DNA of 64,000 nucleotides, from NCBI RefSeq assembly GCF_963506605.1, contig NC_083277.1, positions 3,658,001-3,722,000 on the forward strand. The letters run 5' to 3'. Below, in pieces: positions 40,501 through 47,300 of the stretch. Each line of letters begins with the position of its first letter. Position 1 is the first letter of the stretch. A program made the position numbers and the translations under genes. Source of the DNA: Zootoca vivipara. Its lineage: Eukaryota. The notes beneath the pieces were generated by a model. That model did not search any database and had not been told where the DNA came from. It saw only the letters and a list, made by a program, of their open reading frames with translations.

Positions 40501-41309
40501 ACGATTCTTTATTAATATCATTTGGCGCTGAATTGACTTCAAAGCAATCCATCACAATCTACTGCAGCCCAACGGGACGCCCCTCTCTGGAATCTTATAA
40601 TAAATTCCATTTTTCGTTTTCTTTTTACAAATAACATTCACCCAAATATAATATACACATTTAATGTCGACTCCCCCCCTCCGTCCTTTCCACGGTTCAT
40701 ACTGCTAATTTCTTTTCTTTTACATATTATAATTCCCCCCTTCCCTATTTCTCCTTTTTATATGCAGATATTTCTTCCTGCATAATTTTCTGTCTTTCTT
40801 TGTGTGTGTAGCCACATTCTCTCCTAGGGCACATGACCGGGGGAGGGGCTTCAGTGGAAAGGAAGGCAGGCTGGAGGAAGGGAGTTTGTGGCTGGGGAAA
40901 CCCTGCCAGATGGCTGAGGTAATAATAATAATAATTGTTGTTATTGTGGGTTTTTTAAAAATTGAAGTCACTGGGAGCTTGTGGCCAGGGAGGCTGCAAT
41001 GCCAAACTCCCATCTAACACAGGCAAAAGTAGACACAAAAGGCATGACACTATTCTGATGATGATGATGATAATATTATGTATAATCCCACCCAGCTGGG
41101 TTTTCCTGCATGGTGGGTTTGAAGAGGGAGGCCCCCCTCTTTCACCATGGAAACTGTGTGTGGTAACTCCACACACAGGGAGACTTAGCCTTCAACAGCT
41201 AAACCTCTGGGGGCATTAAAATGCTTGCAGGGTCTCTGAGGCTCCCATTGCTTCTTCCTCCATCCCAGGACCCTGCAGCTTGCTTTGGTTTCTGAGCGCC
41301 TCACGAAGG

Positions 41310-44300: not shown

Positions 44301-47300
44301 ATCCGTCCTTCAACTCACATATCCTGAACACAATCTGGGGATCCGGATCGAAGGATGAAAACTATGGTATTAAAATTAATTAAAAATTAATTGTTTTGAC
44401 TTTGCATTGTGAAGGAGAATGGATTCACAGTTCTAACTTATGAGACTGGCCATCTCTGGAGTCTGTGATCCAATTTTACTTCACAAGGGAAATAAAAAGG
44501 AGATCTTGAAAGGGCATCAATTCCCATGAAGAGATGCGATGTGGAAAGTGGTGAGAATAGTGATGGGAAAGTTAGAGGTCAGAACTGGTGTATTGTAGCA
44601 AAGTAGTTGTACGATTGTAAGAAGGAAGGCTAGAATAGAGAGCCTGCAGGAAGCCAGCTTGTCTTTTGCTGTGGCTAAGGACAGGTCTCACTCAGTTACT
44701 GCCTTCAGTGGGATGTACCTTGGCGGGGTTCTTGGATTGAACCTCACCCTTCTCTGTCAAGTCATCCCGTACCCCCCGGGCAATGGTCAAGTATCATGAA
44801 CTATCCTGCCCTCCTCTGAGACCTTTTTAATTCATTGTTTCTCTGTTACCCGCACCTTTCTATCCCCTGTGGACATTGGCTTTCAAGCCCTATTTGGAGA
44901 GACAGGTGCCTTGTAGGTCTCCTTATTGCAGTTTTAACCTATACTCTCCCACATGGGTAAATATTCAATGTTCCGCATCCAGAGTGTACTTACAGCCAAC
45001 ACCTTCGCGTCCCGAGTCCCTAGTCCAGAACTGATCAGTGTAGAGCATGGGTAGGCAAACTAAGGCCTTGGGGCCACATCTGGCCCAATCACCTTCAAAA
45101 TCCAGTCCGCAGATGGTCCGGGAATCAGCGTGTTTTTACGTGAGTAGAATGTGTGCTTTTATTTAAAATGCATCTCTGAGTTATTTGTGGGGTATAGGAA
45201 TTCGTTCATTTTTTCCTTCTTCAAAATATAGTCGTCCCCGTCCCAACAAGGTCTGAGGGACAGTGGACTGGCCCCCTGCTGAAAAAGTTTGCTGACCCCT
45301 GGTGTAGAGTCTCACAGGTGTCCCCTTAATTCGGTGGCCCTTTCGAGGTCCAAGCGGCAACGGAACTCCGTTGGACCGGTCATGCGCTAAAGGTGTTGTC
45401 TGGGATTCGCCAGGTGAGGTTGGCGATCTGGGTTTACCTGCCTGCATGCTCTGCCAAAATTGTTGGACAAATTTTGTCCCAGGGAATCTTTACCCAGAGG
45501 GCGTCAATTGACTCATTTTAAGGATCTCCAGCAATTAAACTCAGGTTGTAAAACATTCTTGTGCGTAGATAAACAGTTCTGTGAAGGGGGCCCTCCTTTG
45601 GGCTGTTTGTGATACTCTTTGCTCACAGAACCTTAAGGCAGGCATGGTCAGTGTGGCATGGTCAGTGTGGTGTGGTGGTTAAGAATGGTGGATTCTTAAT
45701 CTGGTGAACCGGGTTCGCGTCTCCGCATCTCCACATGCAGCTGCCGGGTGAACTTGGGCCAGTCACACTTCTCTGAAGTCTCTCAGCTCCACTCACCTCA
45801 CAGAGTGTTTGTTGTGGGGGAGGAAGGGAAAGGAGAATGTTAGCCTCTTTGAGACTCCTTAGGATAGTGATAAAGTGGGATANNNNNNNNNNNNNNNNNN
45901 NNNNNNNNNNNNNNNNNNNNNNNNNNNNNNNNNNNNNNNNNNNNNNNNNNNNNNNNNNNNNNNNNNNNNNNNNNNNNNNNNNNNNNNNNNNNNNNNNNNN
46001 NNNNNNNNNNNNNNNNNNNNNNNNNNNNNNNNNNNNNNNNNNNNNNNNNATTCATTTTTATTCATTTCTTCCACATTGGGGGAGCACAGTGGCTGGGGAA
46101 ACCCTGCCGGATGGGCGGGGTAATAATAATAATAATTGTTATTACTGTGTTTTTTTTAATTAAAGTCATTGGGAGCTTGTGGCCAGGGAGGCTGCGGTGC
46201 CAAAACTCCCATCTAACAGAGATAAAAGTAGATGCAAAAGGCATGACTCCATGGAAACTGTGTGTGGTAACTCCAGGGAGACTTGCTCTTCAACAGCTAA
46301 ACCTCTGGGGCAGGAAATAATAATAATAATAATAATAATAATAATAATAATAATAATAATAACCAAATATTAAAAACAGTACAGCATCAGACATTAAAAA
46401 CTTCCCTAAACAGGGCCGCCTTCAGTTGTTTTTTAAAAAGAAAATAGTTGCTTATTGCCTTGACATCTGCTGGGAGGGCATTCCACAGGACGGGCGCCAC
46501 TACTGAGAAGGCCCTCTGCCTGATTCCCTGCAACTTGGCTTTTTGCAATGAGGGAACCGCCAGAAGGCCCTCGGTGCTGGATCTCAGTGTCCGGGCTGAA
46601 TGATGGGGGTGGAAATGCTCCTTCAGGTATACAGGAAAATGCTTGCAGGTTCTCTGAGGCTCCCTTTGCTTCTTCCTCCCTCACAGCACCATGCAGCTTG
46701 CTTTGGCTTCTGAGCGCCTCGCGAAGGATAAAAGAGACTGATCCTGCAAACCTAGTGAGTATGGAAGGAGGAAGGTGGATGGTAGACCTGGTCAGGCTGC
46801 CTCCTGCATCTCTCCCCAAAACAGTTGAGCATTCCCTCCCAGGGCCCTCTGAGAGATCTGGTGAGTTGCAGGGGATAAGAGATGGGGGCAGGGATGGATA
46901 GAGACCAGGAGGGGGGGGGGAAGGGGAGAAGATGGAGAGGAGAGAAAAGGCAGGGAGAAGGAAGCAGAGAGGCCTTCTCCCATGCTCCTCTTTGTTTCTG
47001 GAATCTGCTTTCATAGAGAAGCCAGAAACCTTTTAATCTCACAGGATTTCGATTTTACATGTTTTCCCCCCACTACATGATTAAATGATGATGATGACCT
47101 AAACTAATACAGAAATAGAGGTAAAGGTGCTTGGAAATGCTTTACGTAAATATGTATTTATTTATTTAATTTATTAAATTCATATATCACCCTTCATACA
47201 AAAATGTTCCTTGAAACCCTAAAAAGCATTTCCCCCTTTGCTCCAAAGCAGGTGACGCAGACCATCGAGAGAACTCTGCAGAATGTGGAAGGAGCTTCAT

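Follow-up and report, generated by a model that had tools for sequence, protein, structure and literature searches.

Why should a zinc-finger gene of the lizard Zootoca vivipara carry three similar short exons in a row ahead of its finger array? The gene, here called unit C, lies in a stretch of 64,000 nucleotides (C2:3658001-3722000 of the 1.44-Gb genome; hereafter the window) that sits within a cluster of C2H2 zinc-finger genes. An earlier note on this DNA had described the exons as a tandem array of symmetric cassettes, variable in number per gene, any subset of which could be included in frame to give variable-copy or alternative N-termini on a single DNA-binding array. The locus also touches on a wider problem. 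Many vertebrate zinc-finger genes are classed as ‘ZNF-only’ (723 models in Anolis, according to table 1 of PMC3971581), and what allows such genes to work with no effector domain is puzzling.

We find that unit C owes its three exons to tandem copying of a start-codon exon shared by a lacertid C2H2 family, whose genes differ in the number of copies they carry. The reading that we favor is that each copy contributes a conserved motif and that the copies are probably spliced in a chain, placing one to three motifs before the fingers.

Three cassettes ahead of one zinc-finger exon

The features of unit C and of neighboring units are collected in Table 1. Each cassette of unit C is equipped with a pyrimidine tract, AG and GTGAGT, and all three are free of stop codons in the phase-1 frame that they share with the zinc-finger exon. 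To this extent the threefold module originally described for unit C is confirmed, but its exact upstream motif occurs only once (at 40964), and in the middle copy the module is missing its 5′ part, which is a dispersed repeat also present away from the exon. RNA reads at 40888-41172 are mostly antisense to cassette reads and have loose ends, suggesting that the module is here a repeat whose transcripts come from other loci.

Table 1. Start-exon copies and associated features in the window, in window positions
Feature	Position	Strand	Length	Remarks
Unit A, first copy	9875..12171	+		interrupted by 2.1-kb insertion; halves 9875-9934 and 12052-12171
Unit A, last copy	15480..15653	+	174 nt	intact
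Unit B, last copy	24207..24380	-	174 nt	ahead of 12-finger array 22629-23554
Unit B, first copy	27885..28058	-	174 nt
Unit E, sole copy	36229..36392	+	164 nt	not a multiple of three; ahead of 12-finger array
Unit C, candidate promoter and non-coding first exon	39801..40200	+		putative; CpG island
Unit C, cassette 1	41269..41430	+	162 nt	AG..GT; open
Unit C, cassette 2	42149..42322	+	174 nt	AG..GT; open
Unit C, cassette 3	46687..46860	+	174 nt	AG..GT; open
Unit C, C2H2 zinc-finger exon	47252..48630	+		phase 1; 458 codons from 47254 to TAA
Further unit, last copy	56125..56283	-	159 nt	multiple of three; open
Further unit, first copy	58360..58535	-	176 nt	not a multiple of three

Cassette 2 has ATGs at 42190 and 42223, the second of which opens a core of 13 codons (42223-42261). 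The ATG of cassette 1 is at 41310, and its second ATG has mutated to ACG (core codons, 41343-41381). In cassette 3 the first ATG typical of the family is gone (ATA at 46728) and the second is retained at 46761 (core codons, 46761-46799), while an out-of-frame ATG occurs at 46691; this arrangement fits a start of translation in an upstream copy. In silico, six of the seven possible subsets of unit C cassettes run from their first ATG into the complete 14-finger frame, with products of 499-615 amino acids and one to three motifs. The proposal that any subset can be read in frame thus needs one exception, since cassette 3 alone starts out of frame.

The finger exon encodes 14 fingers by pattern and contains 15 Pfam zf-C2H2 stretches; it is separated from cassette 3 by an intron of 391 nt. 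A tandem acceptor at 47249-47252 (AAG CAG G) keeps the frame either way, and its distal CAG is the one used by paralogue reads. The CpG island contains candidate donors after 39974 and after 40173, islands homologous to it are found ahead of two adjacent units, and RNA depth over it (39801..40200) is 0-0.73.

Exons of the other units were also largely as described, with corrections. Those of unit B, like those of unit C, are stop-free multiples of three as stated. Unit A has two copies, but only one is whole, the other being split by an insertion that is flanked by a target-site duplication. The single copy of unit E is present, but its length is not a multiple of three, and a further unit absent from the original list carries two copies. 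An 18-finger array behind the 159-nt copy of this unit runs through three frames. Lengths that three does not divide occur in two window copies (164 and 176 nt), each the first or sole copy of its gene. Exon identity among window copies is 80-94%, and the repetition is well above chance.

Several other repeats were observed in the window. The start of the zinc-finger exon of unit A (about 16110) is truncated by a repeat. Segments 9935-12051 and 16186-19066, which disrupt the cassette and the finger exon of this unit, are repeat copies with 97-99% identity; more copies lie at 4260-7501 and 58734-59386, and the element resembles a young LINE, as judged by its tail and target-site duplication. 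A segment comprising cassette 3 and its flanks (46054-47144) has an inverted duplicate at 55825-56966 (84%). The finger arrays at 47421-48791 and 53419-54814 are 90% identical, the second being spread over three frames.

A start-codon exon of lacertid zinc-finger genes

Searching the genome recovered the same exon at 30 loci, mostly at a length of 174 nt, with two ATGs, one at nucleotide 41 and the other 33 nt further on. Profile searches (251 candidates) indicate at least 150 genome copies. All 112 copies that we catalogued (see below) have either 99 or 87 nt between the second ATG site and the donor, and frame-breaking changes sit in the 5′ part of the exon. What had been taken for an ordinary internal cassette is therefore a start-codon exon with a loosely constrained 5′ part. 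Its symmetry cannot serve as evidence for cassettes on its own, because 174 nt is also the standard length in single-copy genes and the symmetry of the exons in units B and C is thus inherited.

The core spans 13 residues and bears the signature WTVDLVRL. No Pfam match was found for the exon peptide in the three unit C cassettes, and no credible match in PDB sequences or the ESM Atlas (best Atlas score 0.78). Identity with FATC was considered and rejected at 16.8 bits, which is below the cut-off of that family. A profile search of 1.84 billion representatives returned seven proteins, of which the six named ones are all lacertid (Podarcis muralis, P. lilfordi and Lacerta agilis only). The motif is therefore nearly absent from protein databases and has mostly been missed by annotation. 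Two copies are joined in frame in the predicted RefSeq models XP_032991998.1 (Lacerta agilis) and XP_077779541.1 (Podarcis muralis). The latter suggests an upstream coding exon, look-alikes of which occur at 12 places on C2, C11 and C12 and none within the 64-kb window. Neither motif nor family is described in the literature compared, which consists of main texts mostly from outside the subscription journals; the supplements of PMC3971581 and PMC6381762 might list such genes.

Copy number and reading frame across the family

A survey of 1.06 Mb around the hits yielded 116 matches, from which one decayed copy, one half of a split copy and two copies without a donor were dropped, leaving 112 copies in 75 genes. 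Copy number differs between genes, as had been proposed: 44 genes have a single copy, 23 have two and 8 have three, a distribution in which the multi-copy share is biased upward because regions were centered on hits, partly for their tandem look, and in which the upstream context of some singles is only 2-6 kb. Two singles became doubles after extra upstream sequence was included, both with 174 nt followed by 174 nt. The frame statistics below use the earlier classes of 46 single, 21 double and 8 triple genes.

Downstream copies consistently preserve the reading frame. With two copies lacking an acceptor excluded and 18 of the 36 downstream acceptors called by hand, all 36 downstream copies are open and a multiple of three in length; the same holds for 9 of the 28 first copies and for 25 of the 46 single ones. 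When acceptors were called blind to frame in 37 downstream copies, 27 gave multiples of three and none gave another length; 4 were ties and 6 yielded no call. In the part of C2 past 4.0 Mb, the clear downstream calls are multiples of three in 12 of 12 cases versus 3 of 35 for first or single copies, which there mostly measure 152, 164, 151, 163, 187 or 127 nt. In lineages whose start exon had another length, new lengths divisible by three arose in the downstream copies.

Paralogues are not independent, and the downstream types (150a, 150b, 99, 126, 138 and 177 nt) trace to about four to six origins on the tree. The probability of the downstream pattern arising by chance is roughly (1/3)^4 to (1/3)^6, a figure that is rough because the 126 and 138 sites represent one pre-existing AG and the five 138-nt downstream acceptors are weak.

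Two local features of the family were also observed. A new 99-nt form of the exon is found at C2:4070400, 4088822, 4102602, 4126674, 4159328 and 4174936, where a simple-repeat tract serves as the pyrimidine run of the acceptor, an acceptor type used by RNA reads. At C18:199944-7112081, on a 9.3-Mb contig, there are 18 exon copies, 17 of them with equal score and open-frame length, which indicates that one zinc-finger gene was amplified very recently.

Purifying selection on the core

The 13-residue core is under purifying selection, upstream copies included. Its ω is 0.21 in the 112 copies (p = 3e-14 versus 1) and 0.24 in the 37 upstream (first or middle) copies (p = 6e-6). By class, ω is 0.33 in 29 first, 0.10 in 29 last and 0.18 in 46 single copies, subset values that take in branches possibly older than a copy's present position and that mix histories because copies exchange sequence. 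Upstream copies are thus not decaying, though they are looser than last copies, and the possibility that only the last cassette is spliced while its upstream neighbors drift neutrally is contradicted at the level of the family.

Among 44 copies of the 174-nt type, ω is 0.12 in the 13-codon core, as against 0.65 in the part ahead of the first ATG (a value that is not significant), 0.57 in the stretch that separates the two ATGs and 0.75 in the tail. This tail of 20 codons is near neutral in the full set as well (0.71 overall, 0.84 in upstream copies). Control calculations with the core in shifted frames gave values of 1.3-2.3, and removal of the Met and CpG codons from the upstream copies left ω at 0.23 (p = 6e-5). 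In 18 disjoint upstream pairs, 14.5 missense differences stand against 28.5 silent ones (pN/pS 0.19).

These data bear on the main rival explanation, that the start exon duplicates often in unstable clusters and the duplications are tolerated: one motif suffices, the extras add nothing, and only duplicates that keep the frame survive, since otherwise an upstream ATG would open a harmful upstream ORF. Such a history predicts the same frame preservation, accommodates the 44 of 75 genes with one copy, and agrees with the looseness of first copies, 2 of 29 of which have a stop in the core; moreover, a signal of selection might be carried from copy to copy by sequence exchange. We nevertheless regard it as unlikely. 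Closely related upstream pairs still show a pN/pS of 0.20 (16 pairs, p = 8e-6), and position-specific types (99, 150 and 177 nt) are maintained in several genes. Loss of the upstream ATG would also have been an easier remedy, but the second ATG is retained in 26 of 29 first copies and lost in only 3.

Exchange between copies is visible in unit C itself. The last 120 nt of cassette 1 match the copy at C2:4125896, 426 kb away, at 119 of 120 positions, versus 93 of 108 for cassette 2. More broadly, 41291-41459 (the 3′ part of cassette 1 with its donor) is 96% identical to C2:4125758-4125925, and the 5′ end of the cassette is of the local type. Long-range gene conversion is the likely source of the 3′ part, judging from this pattern of identity.

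Splicing of copies to one another in paralogues

Three raw RNA runs carrying the species label (X11, X12 and X13; about 6% of each) and one contig set were aligned at 94% likeness to 39701-45200, an interval that covers cassettes 1 and 2. Thirty-four reads (32 from X11 and 2 from X12) pass from the donor of a cassette into another cassette, and they do so in four joint forms, none of which is present in run X13. These re-enter at 41332 with AG between (6 reads, X11), at 41299 with CT between (12 reads, X11), at 41305 (6 reads from X11 and 2 from X12) and at 41339 with AGCTAGT between (8 reads, X11).

Each form fits a GT-AG pair in the tandem arrays C2:4124118-4126674 or 4171918-4174936, which are paralogues about 430-470 kb away. 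The matching acceptors belong to C2:4126674, to copies of the 99-nt type (4174936, for example) and to 4125896, which contributes two AGs. C2:4174936 follows 4171918, the one copy in its subfamily with a donor ending in CAG; for the 99-nt joint of C2:4126674 the reads give places only and do not fix the upstream partner. Because the letters at the joints fit real acceptors in tandem arrays, we conclude that copies are spliced to one another in these paralogues, which again contradicts exclusive use of the last copy. No joined form was found as DNA in the 1.06 Mb examined. Back-splicing of cassette 1 was considered as another source of the joints and rejected, as their letters are those of downstream paralogous copies. 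An additional 53 reads connect a cassette to a paralogue finger exon in the same frame; the start of this exon fits C2:3647837, 10 kb to the left of the window.

The letters of most aligned reads are those of paralogues (at 41410, 79 of 82 show A>C), and the joint 41430-42149 expected for unit C is absent from the RNA joints listed, beyond which there are 7 weaker joints and 172 loose ends. Expression of unit C and splicing within it are therefore predictions.

One copy in the paralogues is entered by two acceptors, and the choice has consequences for the product. At C2:4125896, the acceptor that yields an exon of 126 nt (6 + 2 reads) preserves the frame and gives three motifs, and the acceptor that yields 134 nt (12 reads) ends the upstream frame after 34 codons, past the next ATG, so that two motifs are left. 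Among the copy-to-copy reads of X11, 20 of 32 are in frame and the 12 that use the 134-nt acceptor are not. This choice, like the six open subsets of unit C, is what one would expect if splicing were regulated, with isoforms that include different subsets of copies, or that switch between in-frame and out-of-frame acceptors, tuning motif number or translation. We judge such regulation improbable. None of the joints among the reads from 39701-45200 is certain to be a skip, so the skipping isoforms first envisaged for this locus did not appear there. Furthermore, the copies encode near-identical cores, and different subsets would vary only the dose of the motif rather than provide the alternative kinds of N-terminus that had been suggested.

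Possible function of the repeated motif

The tandem start-exon copies are, in our judgment, probably a coding repeat that specifies a conserved motif. That the core instead owes its conservation to the RNA or to the start codon (Kozak context or a splice enhancer), the peptide being incidental, is highly improbable: although the core is purine-rich and starts at an ATG in strong context, and AlphaFold2 applied to the peptide alignment gives no global fold (mean pLDDT 70, pTM 0.24), the codon-position pattern largely refutes this reading, as third positions evolve at about double the rate of the first two (4.1 versus 1.8 per site), synonymous codons interchange freely, and the CpG codon of the core has become the silent ACA in 26 copies and the missense ATG in 3.

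In the AlphaFold2 model, strands 10-13 and 16-19, on either side of the Gly-Gly pair, do form a small hairpin; prediction of a two-copy complex scored 0.02. The VDLV in the core may resemble a SUMO-interacting, CtBP or HP1 motif.

If the copies constitute a coding repeat, unit C would be spliced in the order cassette 1, cassette 2, cassette 3 and finger exon to yield a protein of 615 amino acids with three motifs, and translation would begin in the first included copy. The motif might then act as a short docking site on a flexible linker rich in S, T and P, repeated one to three times. A cofactor docked there would be recruited to the DNA bound by the fingers, standing in for a lost KRAB domain, and more copies of the motif would give stronger recruitment. 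We advance this docking role, with its strength set by copy number, as a plausible but tentative suggestion. Genes with one, two and three copies constitute a natural dose series.

A bolder scenario is also conceivable, though we consider it rather doubtful. Lacertids may have swapped KRAB for a new 13-residue effector in well over 100 genes, stacking one to three start exons to tune strength gene by gene, with selection restoring the frame for each added copy and an alternative acceptor switching motif number within a gene.

Relation to known families and probable loss of KRAB

Symmetric open exons are a property that the lizard family shares with alternative cassette-exon arrays. As to inclusion and skipping, the approximately 6% of raw runs used here reveal copy-to-copy joints and one alternative acceptor in paralogues, and no certain skip. 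In the clustered protocadherins and Dscam, one of many divergent tandem exons is chosen before a constant part. Tandem exons likewise precede a constant part in the lizard genes, but their copies are joined together and encode one core. A closer likeness is found in the phase-symmetric, tandem-duplicated exons that encode disordered, motif-bearing modules, as described by Schad et al. 2013 (PMC3632108): the lizard exon is also symmetric, and its peptide is mostly unstructured, provided with a short motif and duplicated. Unlike those modules, the exon duplicated here is the one that carries the start codon.

In architecture the family parallels the FiNZ- and KRAB-ZNFs yet belongs to neither. 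FiNZ-ZNFs of cyprinid fish, as described by Wells et al. 2023 (PMC10547256), carry a glutamate-rich N-terminal peptide of 28 amino acids with no known domain, for which PMC11603059 mentions possible TRIM33 binding. As in the lizard family, a lineage-restricted short peptide is encoded by one exon that precedes the fingers, in a family of hundreds of genes. The passages compared portray one FiNZ exon per gene, whereas the lizard genes have one to three. The FiNZ peptide is acidic and longer than the lizard core, at 28 versus 13 amino acids, and the latter has the WTVDLVRL signature. No sequence link between the two is apparent, in that no fish protein is among the named profile-search hits. FiNZ-ZNFs repress transposable elements in embryos, whereas the lizard family is known here from sequence and reads. 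The lizard core can be seen, in parallel with FiNZ, as a selected 13-residue candidate effector for one large family.

KRAB-ZNFs, including the lizard KRAB- and SCAN-KRAB-ZNFs presented in PMC3971581 and PMC6381762, have in common with the new family clustered polydactyl C2H2 genes and phase-1 exons ahead of the fingers. The tandem C2H2 array on one exon is also present in unit C; KRAB-A is not, as Pfam finds no match to it (PF01352) in the three cassettes. SCAN (PF02023) was likewise not found by Pfam in these cassettes. The three SCAN exons that we detected belong to other genes, and comparison of the cassette profile with two adjacent SCAN genes gave no hit (best E, 0.1).

No remnant of KRAB DNA is found between cassette 3 and the fingers of unit C. 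Across the family, 55 of 60 genes lack such a remnant between cassette and fingers, and 5 of 60 have a decayed KRAB-A. A KRAB remnant in a database protein scores 16.8 bits against a Pfam cut-off of 20.4. From the decayed KRAB-A sequences, the family is likely to descend from KRAB-ZNFs that lost KRAB. The region 5′ of first copies was screened for KRAB with a pattern and tblastn. A KRAB-A-like exon with plausible splice sites is located at C2:100524-100650, 2 kb ahead of three cassettes in tandem, whereas remnants usually lie downstream of the cassette.
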